The notes under the pieces are model-generated. The model was not told the origin of the DNA. It did not search any database and was given only the letters and a program-made list of their open reading frames with translations. Shown piece after piece: positions 2,418-56,630 of a stretch of 64,000 nucleotides of DNA. The number at the start of each line of letters is the position of its first letter. Position 1 is the stretch's first letter. The position numbers were made by a program, and so were the translations under genes. Source of the stretch: Escherichia phage vB_Eco_F26; the sequence record OP870145.1. One strand, written 5' to 3'.

Positions 2418-2447
2418 ATTATACCACATCCTTGTGGTAAAGTAAAC
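2418..2447 (-). promoter_or_regulatory. T4-type early promoter (GTTTAC -35, 18-bp spacer, TATAAT -10)
   Basis: Minus-strand reading GTTTAC-N18-TATAAT; overlaps 3' end of gene 60; same 32-bp sequence repeated at 51435-51466. Confidence 0.55.
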
Positions 2448-2979
2448 TACTGGCTCATCCATTCTTTACGAAGGTCAGCATTATCTCCCATGAGCATTTC
2501 AAAAAGCTCTTTCCAATTCTCAGGAAGTTTAACAACATCATATACTGGATTTTGAATCATCTCACGATATTCAGATTTTTCCAAAGAGCCAAGTCCTTTA
2601 ATATAACGGATGCTATGTTTAGGTAGAGCATCTTTGGCACTCTCATATTCAGCGACTGTATAAAACCATTCTTGTTTTTTACCGACCTGGGCGATGATTA
2701 CAGGAGTTTTGACAAAGCGAATACGTCCTTGCTCAAACAATTCTGGCCAATTACTAAAAAATCCTAGCAGAGAAGGATAAATAGAACCTAATCCAATAAT
2801 CTCTTAATTATGAGGTATTTCTATGGATAGCCCGAAGGCTATCCATCGTGATCTGCGTCTGTCATAATAGCGACATTCGCATAGTTCATTGAAGAGGATT
2901 TAATAGAACGACGAACATTGTTCTGCAATTTATATTTTTTCATATCAACGCTAGAAGAATCAATTTTTACAAATTTCAT
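2447..2979 (-). CDS. 60: DNA topoisomerase II large subunit C-terminal fragment gp60 (160 aa), translated in two segments (2979..2842 and 2791..2447) across a 50-nt untranslated gap
   Basis: Segment 1 encodes MKFVKIDSSSVDMKKYKLQNNVRRSIKSSSMNYANVAIMTDADHDG (46 aa) ending GGA-TAG; segment 2 resumes LGSIYPSLLGFFSNWPELFEQGRIRF...; 46+114=160 aa, matching recalled T4 gp60. Confidence 0.9.
2792..2841 (-). other. 50-nt translational bypass (coding gap) element with take-off hairpin
   Basis: mRNA reads GAU GGA UAG CCUUCGGGCUAUCC...UUGGA UUA; take-off GGA (2842-2844) followed by UAG stop inside an 8-bp stem with UUCG loop (2826-2845); landing GGA at 2792-2794; reading frame restored at UUA 2789-2791. 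Confidence 0.85.
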
Positions 2980-9260: not shown

Positions 9261-9480
9261 CTAAAACGTAATCACTGATTGTAACAGTTTTCACTTCACC
9301 ACAAAAGAATTCTAACGCAATCAAATCTCGTTCAATTTCTTCCAATTGAAGCATTAACTTGCCTGATTCAATTTTCACGTTTTTGCGATTTTTACTATAA
9401 GCTATTTCATATATTTCGCTCACTTTATCTTGAAGTAGATAAAACTGGTCTTTAGTTATTTCCACGAATAGCTTCCTCAA
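9220..9480 (-). CDS. hypothetical protein (86 aa), dexA.2-like
   Basis: ORF. Confidence 0.45.
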   Translation of the reverse strand: MRKLFVEITKDQFYLLQDKVSEIYEIAYSKNRKNVKIESGKLMLQLEEIERDLIALEFFCGEVKTVTISDYVLGEISHLYKAVIND

Positions 9481-9486
9481 ATTTAA

Positions 9487-10806
9487 TCATACATAAAACA
9501 CATCATAACGACCACGTGTTACACCAACATAAAGAAGCTGCTGAGCTAGTTCAGCATCTGCATAATGAATGCAAGGTGTATAAATGAAAGCACGATCTAC
9601 AGACATGCCCTGAGCTTTATGGAATGTTGATGCAGGAAGTGCTTTCACTTTACTAAACTGTGATTTAGCATCCCAAAAATCACTCCACGGAGCTTTTCCA
9701 CCTTTATTCCAATTTTTATAAGTTTCTGCCGTTTTACCTAAAAATAAGTTAAACTTATACAGCTCTTCATCAGATGAAATTATTTTAATCTTTTCACGAT
9801 AATATTCATCATCGCCGTAAGTTTCTACTGTTAAATCCCAATGACGAATTAGATATTCTCCGGGAACACCACGAGCTTTAACAAATGTTGATGTATACTC
9901 TGCTTCTATAATACGAACTAATTGTCCATTATTAAAAATAATTTCTGACACAGGCTTTCCATCAATTTTATATGTTTTAATTAATGGTTCCTGCATTACA
10001 ATAATTTCACCAACGATAAAATCTTTATCAGTTTCAAAAATCTTTTTGCGAATAATGCTATTTAACTTATCAACAGATTTATTCGTAAATGCCATTACGC
10101 GATTTTCAAACAAATCATCTAGCGATTTGACGATTGAAAAATAATTTACCATAAAATCGCGTAAAGCGGTATCACCAGTAAATCCACGTACTCCATGCCC
10201 GTCAACAATTTTATCATAAATCCACTTACCGTTGCGAACATCAGTAGCTACATCAATAATAGGAGCATTACTGCGTTTAACTTCAGTGAGTTCACATTGA
10301 TAAAAATCTTTGTGCGTAAAGAATGGACTGATATAAGCAGTGTTTTCTCCTGGGTCAACAGGTCTAATTTGCTTATTATCGCCTATTCCAATTATAGTAC
10401 ACCAAGGTGGAATAGTTGAAAGCAGAATTTTAAATAGCTTTCTATCATACATTGATACTTCGTCGCAGATTAATACTCTGCATTTAGCTAAATCCGGTAC
10501 TTCTTTTTGTTCAAAAAGAACGTTTTCTTCGTATGTTACTGGGTTAATTTTAAGAATACTGTGAATAGTACTCGCTTCTTTCCCTGATAGTTTTGAAAGA
10601 ATCTTTTTAGCTGCATGTGTAGGAGCTGCTAAAATAATTCCAGTTTCGCCCGTAGATATTAAAGCTTCAATGATGAACTTAGTAAGAGTAGTCTTACCAG
10701 TACCAGCAGGTCCATTAATAGTTACATGATGTTTCTTTTCTTTGATAGCCCTCATAACGATGTTAAAGGCATTTTTCTGGCCTTCGGTCAAATCATCAAA
10801 TGTCAT
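9487..10806 (-). CDS. dda: Dda SF1B DNA helicase (439 aa)
   Basis: Walker A GPAGTGKTT, Walker B LICDEVSM; length 439 aa as T4 Dda. Confidence 0.9.
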   Translation of the reverse strand: MTFDDLTEGQKNAFNIVMRAIKEKKHHVTINGPAGTGKTTLTKFIIEALISTGETGIILAAPTHAAKKILSKLSGKEASTIHSILKINPVTYEENVLFEQKEVPDLAKCRVLICDEVSMYDRKLFKILLSTIPPWCTIIGIGDNKQIRPVDPGENTAYISPFFTHKDFYQCELTEVKRSNAPIIDVATDVRNGKWIYDKIVDGHGVRGFTGDTALRDFMVNYFSIVKSLDDLFENRVMAFTNKSVDKLNSIIRKKIFETDKDFIVGEIIVMQEPLIKTYKIDGKPVSEIIFNNGQLVRIIEAEYTSTFVKARGVPGEYLIRHWDLTVETYGDDEYYREKIKIISSDEELYKFNLFLGKTAETYKNWNKGGKAPWSDFWDAKSQFSKVKALPASTFHKAQGMSVDRAFIYTPCIHYADAELAQQLLYVGVTRGRYDVFYV

Positions 10807-16360: not shown

Positions 16361-16850
16361 AATTATGTTTATTTTTCAAATAATAAAGTTTAAAGATTTC
16401 TTCCGCATTCATTCCAAGGCCAGCAAACATATTTAATACGAAATGAAATATATCCACAAGCTCAAATTTAATTTCGAGCTGATCTTCTGGGGACATTTCA
16501 TCAATGCGTTTTTCTTGCGCTTCAATATAACGTGCTTTCCATTTTTTCCAAACTGCCGATGCATCTTTTTCACCACGTGACATTTCACCAAGAGAAGTCA
16601 GAAGTTCGCGGAATTCATCATCAATACAGTCTTTTTGTTCACGCATCCAAGAAACAACATCACCGGCAGTTTCTAATTTATCTGGATGATAACAGTATTC
16701 GCGGTCATTTGCTAAACGAATCTGTAAAGATTTCTGCATATCAAGCATTACCTGCAGCGGGTCTTTTTCATCACCGAGAATATCCCAATATTCATTTTGA
16801 GCTTTATCAGCGCCTTCGATCAGTTGACTACATTCGTTGAAATGTGGCAT
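16335..16850 (-). CDS. 56: dCTP pyrophosphatase (dCTPase/dUTPase, MazG-like), 171 aa
   Basis: 171 aa; locus and length match T4 gp56. Confidence 0.8.
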   Translation of the reverse strand: MPHFNECSQLIEGADKAQNEYWDILGDEKDPLQVMLDMQKSLQIRLANDREYCYHPDKLETAGDVVSWMREQKDCIDDEFRELLTSLGEMSRGEKDASAVWKKWKARYIEAQEKRIDEMSPEDQLEIKFELVDIFHFVLNMFAGLGMNAEEIFKLYYLKNKHNFERQDNGY

Positions 16851-16923
16851 GTTATTTTTCCTTTCAATTCATGGGTTAGTAGATTAATTATACAATAAAT
16901 ATATAAAGCAATAAGGAGGACAT

Positions 16924-17124
16924 ATGGTACAAAAATTAATGGCACTTGTTAATGCCATAAAAGGTAATAAGAAACGTATAGCTTTTACTATTACTGCTAT
17001 GATAGGAATTTTACTTTGGAATTTTGTTTTATCGCCAGTTGCTATTGCTCATGGCGTTAGTATTCCAGTAGTTACTCTTGATACATTCGTAGATTTAGCA
17101 TTTGCTTTAGTTGGGTTAATTTAA
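16924..17124 (+). CDS. small hydrophobic protein (66 aa), plus strand
   Basis: Strong SD AAGGAGGA 4 nt before ATG; two predicted TM segments; only convincing plus-strand ORF in window. Confidence 0.4.
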   Translation: MVQKLMALVNAIKGNKKRIAFTITAMIGILLWNFVLSPVAIAHGVSIPVVTLDTFVDLAFALVGLI

Positions 17125-18149
17125 ATCTTAGCATATTTAGATAGCCGCATTTTAGCCATTAACCCCTGGGCAATATTATTTTTCATATATTCCATAATTT
17201 GTTCAGGGGTTGCACCTTCCTTTCTAATCATATCATTAACATCTTTTGATTTCCAGGGAGATTTATCCCAAAACATAACCCTTTCTCCTGCATCAACTAA
17301 TTTAGTCATTCGTTTAATAGTGTCAGGGTGACGAGGTTCATTATCTAAAACCCACACTCGTCTATCTTTAAATGGAACAACTTCTAGGTCTAATTGACCA
17401 CCCGTAATAGCTATACCATTTTCAATAAAAAGTGAATCTATAGGTCCTTCTAGAACATATACATCACCATCTTTAACTCGTTCGACTCCATAAATTTTTG
17501 TTGCTTCAGGATAAGCTTTGATGGTGATATATTTTTGAGGAGCATCTTTCTTTAATGCACGTCCTTGAAACGACTCAGCTTTTCCATTAGCATTATAAAT
17601 TGGAATAACAAGACGAGGCTCAGAAATTTCCTTTTTATATGTTCCCGGTGCTATGCTATTAACTAATTTAGGCCATTCGGTTGTAAACCAAAGATATTTC
17701 CATTTATCCTTTGGAATACAACGAGCTTTTACATATTTTATAATTGGATGGTCTTCCGCCAGTTTATCTAATCTAACACATGACGGAAGAGATTTAATTA
17801 TTTTCTTCTCAGGTTGTTTAGGAAGTTCTTTAGGTTTTTCTACTGGACGACTTTTACCTTTTTCTTTTCTTATTTCAAAGATATACTCACGATATAAATC
17901 AGGTTCAAACTCCTTTAAATATATTCCGATTGGTGCATGATAGTTACAGTTATAACAATGAATATTTCCTTCATTATTATCACCATAATACCATCCACGG
18001 GCTTTATTCTGGTCGGTTTTTGAATCTCCACAAACTGGGCATCTAAACCGTAATTTAAAAGTTGAACTATTATTTACTTGTGTGAATTTAGGTAAATGAG
18101 CTAATGCACGGTATGCAAACTCATTATCAATCCAAGGTATTGATGACAT
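17121..18149 (-). CDS. 61: DNA primase (342 aa)
   Basis: Zinc ribbon CPVCGDS...CYNC plus Toprim region; 342 aa as T4 gp61. Confidence 0.9.
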   Translation of the reverse strand: MSSIPWIDNEFAYRALAHLPKFTQVNNSSTFKLRFRCPVCGDSKTDQNKARGWYYGDNNEGNIHCYNCNYHAPIGIYLKEFEPDLYREYIFEIRKEKGKSRPVEKPKELPKQPEKKIIKSLPSCVRLDKLAEDHPIIKYVKARCIPKDKWKYLWFTTEWPKLVNSIAPGTYKKEISEPRLVIPIYNANGKAESFQGRALKKDAPQKYITIKAYPEATKIYGVERVKDGDVYVLEGPIDSLFIENGIAITGGQLDLEVVPFKDRRVWVLDNEPRHPDTIKRMTKLVDAGERVMFWDKSPWKSKDVNDMIRKEGATPEQIMEYMKNNIAQGLMAKMRLSKYAKI

Positions 18150-49137: not shown

Positions 49138-49426
49138 ATCGGTGTTTGCAATGACGACATTTATAACGAAGAATACTAGTCTGCCAATGAATCAATTGAA
49201 CCTGTTCAGTACCACATTTTGGGCAGTTCGGAACATTCTTAGAAGCCCTTTCGCGGCGTTCAACCATAACCATAATGGCATCCCAAGCAGGAGGTTTAAA
49301 GTCTAAATCGTCACAACCATGAATCTTTCCACGCATTTCCAGATCGTCTTCTTCACCAGCCATAATAATTTTAATTAGACTAGAATTACTTGAAGCTACA
49401 ATGTCTTCTAATAGACGCTTTTTCAT
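49109..49426 (-). CDS. zinc-ribbon protein (105 aa)
   Basis: CPKCG...CRHCKH four-cysteine ribbon. Confidence 0.45.
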
Positions 49427-50352
49427 TTCAATACCTCAATAGCATTACGTAAACCATTTGCTTTTGCATTAAGAGCTTTTAACAGTTTGGTGTGTTCGGC
49501 AATCTGGGCTTCAACTTCAATCAAACGAGCATTGAGATATTCACGTTCTTCACTCAGGTTATCAACCTTTTCTACTTTAGGTTCTTTTACAACTTGCTTA
49601 TATGTATTAGGGTTCTTCAGTTTAATTAGAATGCGTGAACTGTACAGCATTGAACCATTATCTTCGGTTTCGTCATACATTTCCACTACGTCCATCATCT
49701 CCACCATCGTGCAGAGTTTATAAGACAACGAACGAATAATTTTGTTGTGCTTATTAATTTCTCTAGCTGTCATGGTGCCGAGATTACGTGAGTAATAATA
49801 AGGAACCTGGATATTAATTAATACTGATGAACCACCTGGCTTGTGTGTTACTTCATCAGCAATAACCCAATCCTTAACATGAACTGTATTTGTACGGTCA
49901 TCGCCCGCGGTAAATAGTTTACGAGCATGCTTAAAAAGCATATTCACTTGGTCATTGAATTGACAAGCGAATTTATCAGCAAATTTAGTTTCGGGAATGG
50001 TAGATAACCAATCAGTCAAATGGGTCTTTTTAACATCGTTAACAATAGTAAATTCAACCAAATCGGTTATAGATGTCTCAGATTTAATGAAGCTCGGCTT
50101 CATAAAGTTTTTAATGTTATCACTAGCTACAGTAGAAGATAACAGACGAGAACGTTTAAACCATTGAAGCAAATTGCCTAACGAATGAGAATAAGCGTTT
50201 TGAGTATCTTTACAGATATGATTTTCCTGGCCAACATATTGAAGGAAATCACGAAGAATATTATTGATTACTGCCCTGTGTCCTATCTGATAATTACGAT
50301 GTTTAGTAATAAGACTGTCAAAATAATCAATATAATGTTTACGAGTTTTCAT
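49423..50352 (-). CDS. hypothetical protein (309 aa) with C-terminal coiled-coil; member of tandem family
   Basis: MKTR N-terminus; C-terminal heptad region ...[31 protein letters not shown]. Confidence 0.5.
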   Translation of the reverse strand: MKTRKHYIDYFDSLITKHRNYQIGHRAVINNILRDFLQYVGQENHICKDTQNAYSHSLGNLLQWFKRSRLLSSTVASDNIKNFMKPSFIKSETSITDLVEFTIVNDVKKTHLTDWLSTIPETKFADKFACQFNDQVNMLFKHARKLFTAGDDRTNTVHVKDWVIADEVTHKPGGSSVLINIQVPYYYSRNLGTMTAREINKHNKIIRSLSYKLCTMVEMMDVVEMYDETEDNGSMLYSSRILIKLKNPNTYKQVVKEPKVEKVDNLSEEREYLNARLIEVEAQIAEHTKLLKALNAKANGLRNAIEVLK

Positions 50353-50404
50353 GTTCTTCTCACTTTGTTAATGATTTGTACTCCGAGCCATCCTTGGCTT
50401 TAAA

Positions 50405-51436
50405 TTACTTAATTAACTGTAAAGCTTGTTCTAGATGATCAAGACGATTAACGGATTCTTCCCAAATCTTTTTAGCCTGCTCATATTCTTTCTGCGCTTT
50501 ATTAGAAATTTCTAGAACTTCCTTATAAGCTTTTTCTAATGCAATAACTTCTGGACGAATTTCTACCGGTTCAGGTGAATCATCAAGACATTCCATTAGT
50601 TCCTCAAGGGTAGTTTCTTCTTTAGGAGTATTCACAATTTCATCACATTTTTGTTGGTAAATTTCTTTATCAGTCGGTGAGTACGCGCACTTTACTTCAC
50701 GAAGACTAATTACAATTTTATATCCTTCCCAACCGCATATATTCTTAAAAGGATAAGTATGAATATTTTCTACTGTTTCCATACAAAGTAATGCGGTCTC
50801 TAATTGACGAGTTATAGTGCTAGCAATTGAGAAAAATTTATTAATATTCTTTTGGTTAGTTTCTGGTGTAAAAAATCCATAATTCACAAAAATAGCTACT
50901 TTATTTTTATCAAGCTCATATTCTTTTACGATAATCATATCAGAAGCCAAAGGATGAATTTGACGATAATTGCCATAACATAATTTAGAAGCTGATTTTA
51001 GAATTTGTCCTTTGAAAAGTCTGAAATTACTAATCCAACGACGAGTAAAAATATTCTCAGGGTCTTCTTTATTATTAAGATGATAAGAATTAACATCACC
51101 GAACCAATTATATCCTACTACATCTTTAGTTCGTTTAATTTCTTTCCCAAATTTACCAAGAATATCTCTGTTGACTAAGTATGAAAGAAGACGAGACCCT
51201 TTAAAGGTTTTCTTAATGTCATCTTTATCTGTACGACTAGAAATTTCACGAACTTCGTGAATAAATCTGCTGGAAGAAACAATGCTTACATCAATATTAT
51301 TGAGCCATTGATTGATAATAGAAAGAACACTATTCTGACTAGACTTAGGTTTAACTTTATCATCAATAACACTGTTGAATGATTTGATATATTCGTTACG
51401 AGTCATATTAATCTCCTCAGTAGAAAGTAAGAACAT
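50405..51436 (-). CDS. hypothetical protein (up to 343 aa) with C-terminal coiled-coil
   Basis: C-terminal ...NKAQKEYEQAKKIWEESVNRLDHLEQALQLIK; downstream of early promoter 51435-51464 so true start may be internal. Confidence 0.5.
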   Translation of the reverse strand: MFLLSTEEINMTRNEYIKSFNSVIDDKVKPKSSQNSVLSIINQWLNNIDVSIVSSSRFIHEVREISSRTDKDDIKKTFKGSRLLSYLVNRDILGKFGKEIKRTKDVVGYNWFGDVNSYHLNNKEDPENIFTRRWISNFRLFKGQILKSASKLCYGNYRQIHPLASDMIIVKEYELDKNKVAIFVNYGFFTPETNQKNINKFFSIASTITRQLETALLCMETVENIHTYPFKNICGWEGYKIVISLREVKCAYSPTDKEIYQQKCDEIVNTPKEETTLEELMECLDDSPEPVEIRPEVIALEKAYKEVLEISNKAQKEYEQAKKIWEESVNRLDHLEQALQLIK

Positions 51437-51464
51437 TATACCACATCCTTGTGGTAAAGTAAAC
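51435..51464 (-). promoter_or_regulatory. T4-type early promoter (GTTTAC-N18-TATAAT), 32-bp identical copy of 2418-2449
   Basis: Exact repeat attataccacatccttgtggtaaagtaaacta. Confidence 0.55.
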
Positions 51465-52492
51465 TAGTTCAGTGCATTTAGTGCATTGTTCAGTTTAGAA
51501 CGTTGCTTCGTGAGATTTTTGACTTTTTCTTGAGCTTTTTCTAGCATCTTTTCAGCTTCTAGCACTTCATTAGTTGCTTTAACGAGTTCATCATCTACTG
51601 CCTTGATAGACTTCTCAATCGCATCGGCATGCCATTTTTCAACAGGTTTAAGACTCGGATTTTCAACAGGAAGAAAATTCACTTTATTGAATTTCCATGC
51701 ATCCTTATTACCTGAACTATACATCCAAAATTTAGGATCGTTTGATGAGTAATTGGATAAATTTAAATTTAAGTTATCTTGCACTTCTTGCTTTTTCTCT
51801 TGCGGGACTTCGTCCTTTCTCAAAAAATCGTATTTAAATGAAACGATCATATCAAGTTCATATGATGTTGTATCTAACTTAAATCGTTCAAAACGAGGTA
51901 AAATCTTAGATTGAACAGCAGCAACAACATCCATATATTTAAATGCTTCTGTCAACTGTGATTTAAGGCATTCACAAATTGAAAGAGAATTTTTTGTATT
52001 AGGTTTAAAGCTAATTCGTGCAGTTCTATTATTTTCTTTTAATGGTCTTACTTCCATCTGAAGAGTATAACCATCAAATTTCAGGTTCTTTAAGTTAATG
52101 TCAGAACCTTTTAATCGACTAGCCGTCGACAAAATTTGCTTTAATTGTTTACGGAATAGAGCAATAAATCTCCATTCAATACGATAATGATTTGGATTGA
52201 AAAATCCAGATGATAAATCGACCTTACTCTGACCAACACCTTGAACAAACAGAGGATTTTTATAATCAATAGTTTTACAAAAATCGGTGAGCTGCTCACG
52301 GGCCGTCATTTGTGTAATATACCCTGCTTTACTAAAATTACGCACCCATTCACTGCTATTCGTATACTTAAAGTGATGAATAACACGATTAACTTTATCA
52401 GGGTCTAAATTATTTTCACACAAAAATGTCATAACATCACGAGTATAGCTGGCATTACGAACCATATCTTCAATTTGAGAACGAGTTTTCAT
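51464..52492 (-). CDS. hypothetical protein (342 aa) with C-terminal coiled-coil
   Basis: MKTR N-terminus; C-terminal ...LEAEKMLEKAQEKVKNLTKQRSKLNNALNALN. Confidence 0.5.
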   Translation of the reverse strand: MKTRSQIEDMVRNASYTRDVMTFLCENNLDPDKVNRVIHHFKYTNSSEWVRNFSKAGYITQMTAREQLTDFCKTIDYKNPLFVQGVGQSKVDLSSGFFNPNHYRIEWRFIALFRKQLKQILSTASRLKGSDINLKNLKFDGYTLQMEVRPLKENNRTARISFKPNTKNSLSICECLKSQLTEAFKYMDVVAAVQSKILPRFERFKLDTTSYELDMIVSFKYDFLRKDEVPQEKKQEVQDNLNLNLSNYSSNDPKFWMYSSGNKDAWKFNKVNFLPVENPSLKPVEKWHADAIEKSIKAVDDELVKATNEVLEAEKMLEKAQEKVKNLTKQRSKLNNALNALN

Positions 52493-52500
52493 GGTATTCC

Positions 52501-53409
52501 TTAAGATTTAAGTAAATCAACGATTTTAATTAACTTTTCACGCTCAGATTTAGCTTTACTACTCAATCCAGATAGTCTGAAAATTTCATCGTCATATTGT
52601 TGAATAGAAATATTCAGCTCTTCAATTTGCTTATTAAAATAATCAATTTGTTCAGAATGTTTTTCGTTACTACGAACTGGTACAGGTTTTGTAGGCAATT
52701 TAGTTGAACTGGATTCATCCGGGCGATAAATTAAAATACAACTTGAACCAATAGGGCATTTTGCACCAGATGAATATTCTAATGTTCCAGCTTCTTTTAA
52801 AACTTCAAAAGCCAAACAGAGATGATGCCCCATATTAACATAATCTGTAGAGCGAGCTCTGACGTAATAATCATCGCCGCGAATACTAAATTTAAAGCAT
52901 TTAAGGTCTTCTGTATTATTGGTCTTAAAAATCATTTGTTTATCTAGACCTTTAGCTAATCGAGCGCCTAATGCTAATAATCGTCGTTGATTTTCCCACA
53001 AATCTGCGATCATTTGGTCAAATGATAATTTCGGCATTAGTCGACCGTAAAGATCATAGCCTTTATTATAATTGCGAAGAATTTCACTTGCATTAATATG
53101 AGACAACGCTCCAATTTTATTAAGGGCTTTCATGATGCGATTAGATAAAAGCATTCCAGATCCGTTTGTTCGTTGTAAATGTTTTTCTAATCCAAATCCA
53201 ATATCAACTTTAAACTTATCTAAAATTTCGGCGTGAACATCTTTATCAATAACATTTAAATTTAGTACTGGGTTAAATTTATGAAAAAATTTATCTGACT
53301 CGTCGCGTTGAAGTACAGTCCATTCATTTGATTTTTTATTAACTAAAGATTTAATTACTGCATTGACATTATTAATTGCTACTGACATATTTTCCTCACT
53401 CAATTTCAA
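52501..53409 (-). CDS. hypothetical protein (302 aa) with C-terminal coiled-coil
   Basis: C-terminal ...QIEELNISIQQYDDEIFRLSGLSSKAKSEREKLIKIVDLLKS. Confidence 0.5.
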   Translation of the reverse strand: MKLSEENMSVAINNVNAVIKSLVNKKSNEWTVLQRDESDKFFHKFNPVLNLNVIDKDVHAEILDKFKVDIGFGLEKHLQRTNGSGMLLSNRIMKALNKIGALSHINASEILRNYNKGYDLYGRLMPKLSFDQMIADLWENQRRLLALGARLAKGLDKQMIFKTNNTEDLKCFKFSIRGDDYYVRARSTDYVNMGHHLCLAFEVLKEAGTLEYSSGAKCPIGSSCILIYRPDESSSTKLPTKPVPVRSNEKHSEQIDYFNKQIEELNISIQQYDDEIFRLSGLSSKAKSEREKLIKIVDLLKS

Positions 53410-53858: not shown

Positions 53859-54386
53859 TTATGCGAGTACCGTCTTTAACCGTTCTTCAAACTTCCGAAG
53901 AGTATTTTGGCGTTCAGCTCTTTGCTTTTTGTAAGTTTCAATACGCTCTGAAATGAGAGTGTATCGTTCATTTACTGATTCTTTCATAAAATCAGGAATT
54001 TCACGAGAAGCTTTAATCTCGTCAAATTTATCAATAACAGCTTGCTCTTCAGCAATTAAGTTATCATACATCAAAATATCTTTCTTGATGAACTCAATAT
54101 CTTCTTGAGTTACACGAGATAATTTAGATGCTTTATCCTTTTTGTACTGTTCGTTAGTATCACGAGACCAGTGTAATGTACGATTTTTATTCGTATTCTT
54201 GTAAATTTCTACAATACCAATCTCATCAATAATAACGATCCAATTCCAACGGGATTTGTAAATTTGTCCTCCATCAACAGTGATTTCACCTCCGATTGAG
54301 ATGTCATTAAAGAACTTGCTTTGTGCTTCAGATTTAAATTTACCATCGTTGTAATTTACCAAGTTGAAAATATCTTTAGCGTTCAT
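53859..54386 (-). CDS. hypothetical protein (175 aa)
   Basis: ORF with GGAGGA SD; downstream of early promoter. Confidence 0.45.
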   Translation of the reverse strand: MNAKDIFNLVNYNDGKFKSEAQSKFFNDISIGGEITVDGGQIYKSRWNWIVIIDEIGIVEIYKNTNKNRTLHWSRDTNEQYKKDKASKLSRVTQEDIEFIKKDILMYDNLIAEEQAVIDKFDEIKASREIPDFMKESVNERYTLISERIETYKKQRAERQNTLRKFEERLKTVLA

Positions 54387-54831: not shown

Positions 54832-55551
54832 TTAGGATTCTTCTAAATGTCTTTTCTGAAAAGTTGATACCATACTACGATACGGTTCATTTGGATATCC
54901 GTGTTTTATAGCTTCCTTTGTAAATTTTCTCCATCCATATTTAGTTTCTTTCCAAAGCTCGAATAATTCATCTTCATACTGCCATATAGTTAAATGAGAA
55001 CGCTTTGCAGCTTTAATTCCATTAATATGCTTTTCTTTTACTGTAGGATTGCTTAGTTTCTTTTTAATAATATTACTAACTTTTCTAACAAAAACTGGGT
55101 CCTTATATCGTTGCGAAGTTTTTATTGAAGTGTTTAATTTAGCTTCCGGCGTGGATGTGACCTCTTTCATCTTTTTCTTCATATGCTGTATATGATTAGG
55201 ATTTTTCCATAAATTTATAGAATGCTTTTTGCATTTTATCCTAGTTTCATCTGCAACCTTTCCTCCTTCACCCCCGTATGACAGGTTAACACAGTTTTTT
55301 CCATATTTCAATTTACCTGCCATGATATATAATATTTCAGCTTGTACCATTTTATCATAATTATCAAAAACTTCTAAAACCGTTTTTGATAATATGTGGT
55401 CATTTGACACTTTTACACGTTCTATATAATTTCCACTACCAACATACGAATCATTGATGTTATTAGTTATATGTCGACCATAATAGTATTTCTTAATACC
55501 TGTCTTTAAATTTAATATTTCAGTTTTATAGATAGTAAAATATTTTTTCAT
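54832..55551 (-). mobile_element. possible GIY-YIG-like endonuclease (239 aa)
   Basis: N-terminal YFTIYKTE...KKYYYGRH; basic C-terminal half. Confidence 0.4.
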
Positions 55552-56528
55552 TTTAATAATACCGTTTCAGCAATTTCTTCCCAATGGTTTTTGTCGGTCA
55601 TAATAAAGTCAGCAAGATAAAGAGCAGTACGCAGTGAAACATTGCGTAAACGATTAACATTGACTTTCATCCATGATAATGCTTTATAAGTTTCTTCATC
55701 AGAAAGACCGCGCTTTTGCATCATGTCAGTTGAAAGAATAACATCTTCAACCCTGACCATAATTTCTTCATTAGTGTGAACACCCAAATCCAAATAAACT
55801 GAGCGGGACACTAATGCTTGTAAATGTGGAGCAAGTTTAGTACCACGGTCTAATTCGCGGTCAATATCAACGTTTGTGATAAAAACAATCGTTCCTTTAA
55901 ATTCAAACTCACGCTCAATGCCTTTTTCTTCTAAGTAAGAAGATGCAGTGCTCCAGCAGACTTTACGGGTCTCTCCAGTGTCCAGAGCAGCTTTCAGAAG
56001 ATTAAGAATGTCCATATCAGAGAAAACATCCACATCATCAATCAAAAGGACAGAATTCTCTTCACGATTATTCCAAAGCTGTTCATAAAGACCGATACCA
56101 GAGATTTTACCATTAATGCTTTTATACTCAATGTATCCAATATCATTTGCTTTATTCAAAGCTTTATCTAAAGAATACGTTTTACCAATACCTGCCGCAC
56201 CAGAGATAATTAATGAACGAATGTTTCCGTTAATAATACCATTCGTCATCATTCCCATAACATTAAATCTTTTATTAATGCGGGTTTTCATATCTTCATA
56301 TGATTCTTTAACTTCTTCAACTTTTACACCATCATATGAAATGTCTGATTTGTAAACCCAAACACCGCGACGCTTACCGTCAATTTCAACAAAAACTTTA
56401 CCATCTCCTTGTGCATCTACCGGAGCATTATCTGGGAACCATTCGCCTAAGAGCTCAAAAGTTCCAGAGATTTCTTTACCGAAGTAGATACCCTTATTGA
56501 TAGTTACAGTTTTCATTTTATTCTCCAA
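55548..56528 (-). CDS. P-loop NTPase (326 aa)
   Basis: Walker A GAAGIGKT, Walker B LLIDDVD. Confidence 0.55.
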   Translation of the reverse strand: MENKMKTVTINKGIYFGKEISGTFELLGEWFPDNAPVDAQGDGKVFVEIDGKRRGVWVYKSDISYDGVKVEEVKESYEDMKTRINKRFNVMGMMTNGIINGNIRSLIISGAAGIGKTYSLDKALNKANDIGYIEYKSINGKISGIGLYEQLWNNREENSVLLIDDVDVFSDMDILNLLKAALDTGETRKVCWSTASSYLEEKGIEREFEFKGTIVFITNVDIDRELDRGTKLAPHLQALVSRSVYLDLGVHTNEEIMVRVEDVILSTDMMQKRGLSDEETYKALSWMKVNVNRLRNVSLRTALYLADFIMTDKNHWEEIAETVLLK

Positions 56529-56602: not shown

Positions 56603-56630
56603 ATAAAAAAGGGAGCCCGAAGGCTCCCTA
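56603..56630 (-). terminator. intrinsic terminator (GGGAGCC-UUCG-GGCUCCC + U6)
   Basis: 7-bp GC stem, tetraloop, six U on mRNA. Confidence 0.65.

Follow-up and report, generated by a model that had tools for sequence, protein, structure and literature searches.

The closest described counterpart of the locus analysed here, a block of four genes in a 64,000-nucleotide stretch of Escherichia phage vB_Eco_F26 (sequence record OP870145.1; this whole stretch is called the window below), is found in phage T4, where the gene nrdC.5 has been connected with escape from the SIR2 defence dsr1. A T4 clone with deletions no longer plates on ECOR17, and plating is brought back when dsr1 is deleted from the host; when expressed alone, nrdC.5 allows the T4 deletion mutant to plate again on MG1655 carrying dsr1 (Srikant et al. 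2022, eLife, PMC9391042). No other nrdC.x gene was cloned in that study, in which nrdC.5 is called an early gene. According to a 2026 study (PMC13581612), the phage major capsid protein is the trigger recognised by the sensor of Dsr1, which is common to Avs7; this sensor domain is found in fusion with at least 20 different effector domains.

With regard to other phage counter-defence systems, DSAD1 of SPbeta-type Bacillus phages resembles NrdC.5 in outline, as it too is encoded by a phage and neutralises a sirtuin NADase associated with defence; it acts on DSR2 by binding this sensor protein (PMC10973363, PMC10981675). However, DSAD1 has no sequence or fold relation to the four proteins of the block, although the PDB holds DSR2-DSAD1 complexes, and the system differs in host, phage group and target (DSR2 versus Dsr1), which makes it an analogy and not a case of family membership. 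The NAD+ reconstitution systems NARP1, NARP2 and NARP3 lead to the same phenotypic outcome, namely escape from an NAD+-depleting defence, and overcome DSR1; they are enzymes, whereas the four proteins studied here have neither an enzyme domain nor a conserved catalytic-looking motif. Finally, the dmd-tifA-adfA 'anti-TA island' (TA, toxin-antitoxin) of T4 (PMC9391042) is likewise a cluster of small-to-medium early non-essential accessory genes, each directed against a host system and variable among relatives. That island consists of unrelated genes, whereas the present block consists of tandem homologues of about 300 amino acids with a common C-terminal helix.

Compared with T4 itself, the window encodes an orthologue of the anti-Dsr1 factor NrdC.5 (family DUF7235) that is 96 % identical, has 342 versus 340 amino acids, stands in the same gene order and shows no difference at the family level. 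The other three genes are orthologous, by synteny and by identities of 60, 93 and 94 %, to NrdC.3, NrdC.4 and NrdC.6 of T4, all hypothetical proteins whose families are held apart from DUF7235 in the databases. As judged from comparisons of sequence profiles, nrdC.3, nrdC.4, nrdC.5 and nrdC.6 are strongly diverged tandem paralogues of one superfamily, which we found only in T4-like phages (Straboviridae). The novelty thus lies in uniting three families, so far filed apart, in one superfamily that has expanded in tandem, and not in the genes, which are already known as T4 open reading frames (ORFs), one of them with a known phenotype.

Identity of the block and gene models

The block is made up of four adjoining ORFs at positions 49423-53409, all on the minus strand of the window, which has a G+C content of about 33-36 % and a negative GC skew throughout. 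In a megablast search the 3987 bp of the block matched 629 phage records, nearly all of them T4-like phages of Escherichia, Shigella, Yersinia and Salmonella, and the closest match was 96.5 % identical over the full length. The T4 reference carries nrdC.3, nrdC.4, nrdC.5 and nrdC.6 at the same position and on the same strand, flanked by nrdC.2 and nrdC.7, and the proteins flanking the block in the window are also those of T4 (endonuclease VII, PinA, the glutaredoxin-like thioredoxin NrdC and orthologues of nrdC.7-nrdC.10). Because T4 gene order, strand and protein identities all match, the window belongs to a Tequatrovirus (a T4-like phage) and the block is its nrdC.3-nrdC.4-nrdC.5-nrdC.6 segment, with the following genes:

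49423..50352, minus strand: nrdC.3 orthologue, 309 amino acids; phrog_1435 (E 1.8e-115), very likely Pfam PF26897
50405..51406, minus strand: nrdC.4 orthologue, most likely 333 amino acids from ATG 51406; phrog_1435 (E 1.9e-165), very likely Pfam PF26897
51464..52492, minus strand: nrdC.5 orthologue, 342 amino acids; phrog_2351 (E 3.2e-171), Pfam DUF7235
52501..53388, minus strand: nrdC.6 orthologue, most likely 295 amino acids from ATG 53388; phrog_2257 (E 5.6e-150), very likely Pfam PF26899 (Phage_T4_Y05B)

The original prediction, made from the sequence of the window alone, had stated that neither function nor family could be assigned to these ORFs. This has been superseded, since they correspond to T4 nrdC.3-nrdC.6, are filed in the databases as three Pfam families and three PHROGs (1435, 2351 and 2257), and include the orthologue of a gene with a published anti-Dsr1 phenotype. 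The nrdC.5 orthologue matched the DUF7235 model (PF23882) with 427 bits (E 5.7e-128; gathering score 30 bits), residues 1-342 aligning with positions 1-307 of the 307-position profile, and no match to this model was obtained from the nrdC.3, nrdC.4 and nrdC.6 proteins. Database proteins 92-95 % identical to those of the window carry PF26897 (nrdC.3 and nrdC.4; 94 % for the nrdC.4 homologues) or PF26899 (nrdC.6) as precomputed domains, so that membership of these two families is very likely on the basis of similarity.

That the four genes are real is shown by their conservation, as each is carried by 553-741 phage records (nrdC.6 being the most widespread with 741) and the ratios of non-synonymous to synonymous substitution rates (dN/dS) against five related phages lie between 0.09 and 0.35 (0.10-0.35 for nrdC.3), indicating purifying selection. 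The coordinates and lengths given earlier (309, 343, 342 and 302 amino acids) are exact for the longest ORFs, and shorter products seem most likely for two of them. The open frame of nrdC.4 reaches 51436 (343 amino acids), and the start at 51406 is favoured because the ATG further upstream shares bases with the -10 hexamer of an element of the early-promoter type (see below), a GAGGAG Shine-Dalgarno sequence precedes the ATG at 51406, and T4 nrdC.4 is annotated with 333 amino acids; phrog_1435 aligns from residue 11 of the longer ORF. Similarly, the open frame of nrdC.6 begins with a TTG at 53409 (302 amino acids), and the ATG at 53388 is favoured because most homologues found have 280-298 amino acids and phrog_2257 aligns from residue 8. 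It had also been noticed that two of the proteins begin with MKTR, and those of nrdC.3 and nrdC.5 indeed do so. From its likely start, nrdC.4 begins with MTRNEY, and in the joint alignment an N-terminus of the form M(K)TR..(Y/I) recurs across the nrdC.3, nrdC.4 and nrdC.5 families; because of this recurrence the shared N-terminus is a signal of homology and not a chance likeness.

Homology among the four families

The original prediction, which saw in the four genes paralogues that had multiplied in tandem, was right at its core, but only at the level of sequence profiles. The lack of pairwise similarity had been named there as a refuting result, and by pairwise BLASTP the prediction would indeed fail for five of the six pairs, the sole pair linked being nrdC.3 and nrdC.4 (25 % identity over 226 residues, E 5e-6), which share phrog_1435 and scored 98 % (E 1e-14) when their profiles were compared by hhalign. 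When divergent nrdC.5-like ORFs from other T-even-type loci were added, the nrdC.4 and nrdC.5 profiles scored 86 % against each other and the combined nrdC.3+4 profile reached 92 % against nrdC.5; a second hhalign run gave 80 % (E 1.5e-5), so that the values for this pair range from 80 to 92 % (E 1.5e-5 to 7e-7). Direct hhalign comparison of nrdC.6 with either nrdC.5 or nrdC.3+4 was not significant (17 % or less).

The connection of nrdC.6 to the other families was found by way of intermediate sequences. An exhaustive HMMER search with the nrdC.6 profile against 1.84 billion representative proteins gave 15 matches only, indicating that this family is very narrow, and among these matches were the remote full-length relatives P0235, P0237 and P0238 (E 7e-7 to 6e-5). 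These three proteins, together with gp94 of Yersinia phage fHe-Yen9-01, make up the intermediate group. The profile of this group scored 98.7 % against nrdC.6 (E 1.7e-16), 96.4 % against nrdC.5 (E 1.4e-9) and 96.7 % against nrdC.3+4 (E 4.5e-10), and each of the three alignments was collinear over about 230 columns. When the C-terminal helix was cut from every alignment, the intermediates still scored 97.8 % against nrdC.6 and 95.0 % against nrdC.3+4, while nrdC.3+4 scored 90.5 % and nrdC.6 plus the intermediates 85 % against nrdC.5; over all links the values ranged from 51 to 98 %, with every pair but one at 72 % or above. As negative controls, six neighbouring gene families, including the heptad-tailed nrdC.8, scored at most 1 % against all four profiles. 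It should nevertheless be stressed that the membership of nrdC.6 is the weakest point of the proposed superfamily, as it hangs on a small intermediate profile.

The joint alignment also reveals shared motifs. One of them has the form F(K/N)+s..hS...A...L..F (examples are WFKRSRLLSSTVASDNIKNF, TFKGSRLLSYLVNRDILGKF, NFSKAGYITQMTAREQLTDF and ALNKIGALSHINASEILRNY), another, A(S/A)(R/K)L..G, closes a long helix (HARKLFTAG, SASKLCYG, TASRLKGS and LGARLAKG), and the C-termini have the form ...L..A(h)..LK. The architecture proposed for all four proteins begins with a mainly helical N-terminal region, followed by a basic alpha/beta core that carries the first two, conserved motifs, a variable low-complexity linker and a conserved heptad helix of 46-59 residues. 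The globular parts are basic in all of them, with isoelectric points (pI) of 9.1-9.5 and net charges of +6 to +11.

The C-terminal helix was examined from the hydrophobicity of the last 46-59 residues in the family alignments, with a permutation p value for the power at a period of 3.5 residues. The heptad-like helix that had been predicted for each protein was recovered in all four, spanning four heptads or more, with hydrophobic periods of 3.45-3.50 residues and p values of 0.0045 or lower:

49423..49563, minus strand: C-terminal heptad helix of nrdC.3, last 46 codons and stop; best period 3.50, permutation p 0.0025; heptad score 0.78 (3 of 200 shuffles scored as high)
50405..50554, minus strand: C-terminal heptad helix of nrdC.4, last 49 codons and stop; best period 3.45, permutation p <0.0005 (65 sequences)
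51464..51643, minus strand: C-terminal heptad helix of nrdC.5, last 59 codons and stop; best period 3.50, p 0.0005; heptad score 0.88 (none of 200 shuffles scored as high)
52501..52662, minus strand: C-terminal helical hairpin of nrdC.6, last 53 codons and stop; best period 3.50, p 0.0045

A cruder heptad score calculated from single sequences was significant for nrdC.3, nrdC.5 and nrdC.6, and not significant for nrdC.4. In AlphaFold2 models the tail of nrdC.5 forms a single helix (residues 283-341; predicted local distance difference test, pLDDT, 66-90), which is the sole confident part of that model, and the tail of nrdC.6 forms a helix-turn-helix (242-271 and 277-294), that is, an intramolecular hairpin. 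A true intermolecular coiled coil formed through the C-terminal helix is plausible from these predictions.

The nrdC.6 model (pLDDT 77.8, predicted template modelling score 0.65) was compared with BFVD using Foldseek, and it matched proteins of 300-335 amino acids from Enterobacter phage IME523 and Pectobacterium phage PM2 (E 1e-7 and 4e-7, template modelling scores 0.42-0.50). Since these fold matches are also sequence relatives of the intermediate P0237, the structural and the sequence evidence agree. The nrdC.5 model was built from 19 homologues, all at least 80 % identical except one at 38 %; the low confidence of this model is due to the family being too uniform, and it was left out of the fold searches. 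In both models, that of nrdC.5 having a pLDDT of 46, the core runs in a similar succession from a helix through two strands and a second helix to a final strand. No PDB chain was matched, either by sequence using three family profiles or by fold using the nrdC.6 model.

With regard to earlier work, our full-text literature search gave no paper stating that the nrdC.3-6 families form one superfamily, and the full-text library contained no paper mentioning the three Pfam families; the sole functional report found on these genes is PMC9391042.

Variation of the locus, putative promoter element and neighbouring genes

The number of copies differs among T4-like phages. Distant T4-like metagenome contigs and Kanagawavirus IME523 have one member at the same syntenic site, between the nrdC.10/nrdC.11-type genes on one side and nrdC, pin and endonuclease VII on the other. 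Three copies occur in the order nrdC.6-like, nrdC.5-like and nrdC.4-like in other T-even-type phages (loci L013-L021), and as nrdC.6-like, nrdC.5-like and nrdC.3 in phiE142-type phages, while all four are present in Tequatrovirus. In the Tegunavirus fHe-Yen9-01, two members are dispersed (9459-10337 and 16382-17323 of locus L022) and form no tandem array. Its gp94 is of the intermediate type, and its gp111 (313 amino acids) is BFVD entry A0A1V0DXL6, which was matched by the nrdC.6 model and shows a weak sequence relation to the nrdC.5 profile (E 1e-4 in a database of 7 sequences).

The genes also vary in sequence and integrity. For nrdC.3 there are three discrete allele classes: 361 records show 90 % identity or above, 192 further records lie near 75 %, and a group of 100, to which T4 and T2 belong, lies near 60 %. 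The allele of the window is thus in a different class from that of T4, and the two proteins are conserved at their ends and divergent in the centre. In phage vB_EcoM_G8 (loci L002, L009 and L026), nrdC.4 is split into ORFs of 193 and 158 amino acids, and in the protein P0056 the central part of nrdC.5 is fused in frame to the C-terminal half of nrdC.3, nrdC.4 having been lost. The split and the fusion alike point to turnover of the locus. T4 nrdC.6 (NC_000866, 10067-10894 of locus L001; AF158101, 52007-52893) is annotated with 275 amino acids and matches the 295-residue window protein in two tblastn pieces. Read from these alignments, nrdC.6 of laboratory-strain T4 is frameshifted and has lost its C-terminal helix, whereas the window copy is intact; nrdC.6 would therefore be dispensable on laboratory hosts.

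A pattern search located a putative promoter directly upstream of nrdC.4:

51435..51464, minus strand: early-promoter-type element GTTTAC-N18-TATAAT

The pattern GTTTAC-N16-18-TAYAAT has 7 matches in the window, all on the minus strand, compared with 0.12 expected by chance. Moreover, the 32-bp repeat TAGTTTACTTTACCACAAGGATGTGGTATAAT was found by blastn in exact copies at 51435-51466 (minus strand) and 2418-2449 (minus strand), about 49 kb apart, both just upstream of gene starts; the first copy contains the element. We take this motif to be the T4 early-promoter consensus, and the element looks like a promoter of this type. A generic sigma-70 promoter scan of the window stayed at chance level (54 found versus 48.5 expected). 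Most phage records show a second place matched by the DNA query. This is probably no paralogue, since the window itself holds just one such additional match, the 32-bp promoter repeat.

Beyond the block, the nrdC.8 orthologue (53859-54386, minus strand, 175 amino acids, phrog_2274) also ends in a heptad-like helix. It was considered as a fifth member and rejected, as it gave no match to the hidden Markov models and scored 0.6 % or less in hhalign. Between the nrdC.9 and nrdC.10 orthologues lies a homing-endonuclease ORF (54832-55551, minus strand, 239 amino acids, phrog_314, E 1.9e-30) at a spot where T4 has no gene, and it is probably a mobile insertion. The nrdC.10 orthologue (55548-56528, minus strand, 326 amino acids) gave weak sub-threshold P-loop matches to AAA_14, AAA_22 and nSTAND3, and a strong bidirectional hairpin terminator is located just upstream of it at 56610-56629. 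One record (GEP001) labels a gene of the block 'Mur ligase domain-containing protein'.

Proposed counter-defence role and alternative functions

On balance we are slightly inclined to regard the block as a set of accessory genes, early and non-essential, whose products neutralise immune proteins of the host. The anti-Dsr1 activity of the window nrdC.5 allele is assumed from its similarity to the T4 gene, and nrdC.3, nrdC.4 and nrdC.6 become candidate counter-defence genes because they belong to one superfamily with nrdC.5. Scans with Pfam and NCBIfam models gave no known domain or enzyme motif in the four proteins, and PADLOC models gave only an 11-bit coiled-coil match to BrxC (E 0.015). This match and the weak matches to XerD, DndD, PgrA and prefoldin (NCBIfam) and to PHL, DUF3905, DUF4164 and AAA_23 (Pfam) were rejected as sub-threshold or as coiled-coil artefacts. 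Since neither an enzyme domain nor any other known domain was recognised in the proteins, and the PDB gave no relative in either sequence or fold searches, we propose that they are binding proteins rather than enzymes. NrdC.5 would then be produced before the late capsid protein that triggers Dsr1, and would act by stoichiometric binding, as an inhibitor or a decoy of the sensor or effector of Dsr1, blocking its SIR2 NADase. The products of nrdC.3, nrdC.4 and nrdC.6 may act likewise on other host targets, with target specificity set by the variable central domain, and the conserved C-terminal helix would serve for oligomerisation or docking.

The pattern of selection can be compared with that of adjacent genes. 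The dN/dS values of endoVII, nrdC, nrdC.8, nrdC.9 and nrdC.10 lie between 0.00 and 0.13, and those of nrdC.3-nrdC.6 overlap with the values of pin (the Lon inhibitor), nrdC.2 and nrdC.7. Values above those of most neighbours, discrete alleles, the divergent centre of nrdC.3 and the split, frameshifted and fused copies would together fit the signature of an arms race and, along with the early-promoter-type element, that of accessory counter-defence genes. Several points weigh against counter-defence as the common role of a single superfamily. All dN/dS values are below 1, so that positive selection is not evident over whole genes. The direct hhalign score of nrdC.6 against nrdC.5 is 0.3 %, nrdC.6 being linked only through a profile of four sequences, and the nrdC.5 model, with an overall pLDDT of 46, is too poor to show a fold common to all four proteins. 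The functional data consist of a single complementation experiment, which concerns nrdC.5 in T4, and basic globular domains would equally suit nucleic-acid binding.

Alternatively, it may be that the four genes are paralogues of which only NrdC.5 takes part in counter-defence, the others being early host-takeover or regulatory proteins (for instance modulators of host enzymes or of transcription) with no link to immunity. Paralogues that have diverged to 15-25 % identity often differ in function, the functional data are solely for nrdC.5, and the widespread nrdC.6 family keeps a strongly conserved motif, NQRRLLALGARLA.G.DKQM.FKT, which suggests a conserved target and not a fast-changing immune one. 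We nevertheless consider this division of roles unlikely, though worth keeping in mind, since the accessory block that holds the genes is non-essential and variable, with one to four copies across genera, discrete alleles and broken copies occur, and nrdC.6 of T4 is itself frameshifted. The suggestion in the original prediction of DNA/RNA-binding effectors found no nucleic-acid-binding domain or fold to rest on, but the basic globular parts would suit it. Oligomeric nucleic-acid binders, in which the basic domain binds DNA or RNA, the coiled coil dimerises the protein and the anti-Dsr1 activity is indirect, would agree with this charge and with C-terminal heptad helices, which are typical of dimeric DNA-binding proteins, and nrdC.3 has weak sub-threshold matches to the N-termini of XerD/tyrosine recombinases (18 bits versus a cut-off of 279). 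We regard this alternative as improbable.

The proteins might also be directed against competing phages or mobile elements instead of host immunity. Exclusion genes occur in T4-like accessory regions too, a homing endonuclease lies nearby at 54832-55551, and a variable copy number is as compatible with inter-phage conflict as with counter-defence. Such a role in exclusion or phage-encoded defence appears very unlikely to us, as no PADLOC defence model was matched and the sole member tested acts against a host system. Virtually no weight can be given to the description in many GenBank records, by which the proteins would be thioredoxin-like or accessory to ribonucleotide reductase. Gene names of the nrdC.x type and 'thioredoxin' product labels are all that speak for it, whereas no match to the thioredoxin and glutaredoxin families (PF00085, PF00462) and no CxxC motif was found in any of the four, and the secondary structure predicted by AlphaFold2 for nrdC.5 and nrdC.6 is incompatible with a thioredoxin fold. 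With both fold and active-site motif absent, the thioredoxin identity of nrdC.3-6 is refuted, and the label is an annotation error on nrdC.1 to nrdC.11-type genes that has spread from the nrdC name prefix.

Taking neutralisation of host immune proteins as the preferred reading, a more far-reaching model can be formulated, which as a whole we find rather doubtful. The nrdC.3-6 superfamily would be dedicated to inhibiting the pattern-recognition receptors of bacteria and would have diversified through tandem duplication and the exchange of cassettes, with each paralogue or allele acting through its variable central domain on a different clade of the Dsr1/Avs7 capsid sensor or on another sensor. 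The C-terminal helix would assemble homo- or hetero-oligomers, and a single ancestral gene would have given rise to a four-gene 'anti-sensor' array.

Even in T4, the best-studied lytic phage, a function has been reported for only one of the genes nrdC.3-nrdC.6. An origin of all four from a single gene merges three database families now kept apart and provides three immediate candidates for new counter-defence factors, whose specificity could be dissected by exchanging the variable central domains while retaining the conserved ends. Since pathogenic E. coli and Shigella are common isolation hosts for this genus, the alleles and copy number at this locus may help to explain differences in host range among its phages.

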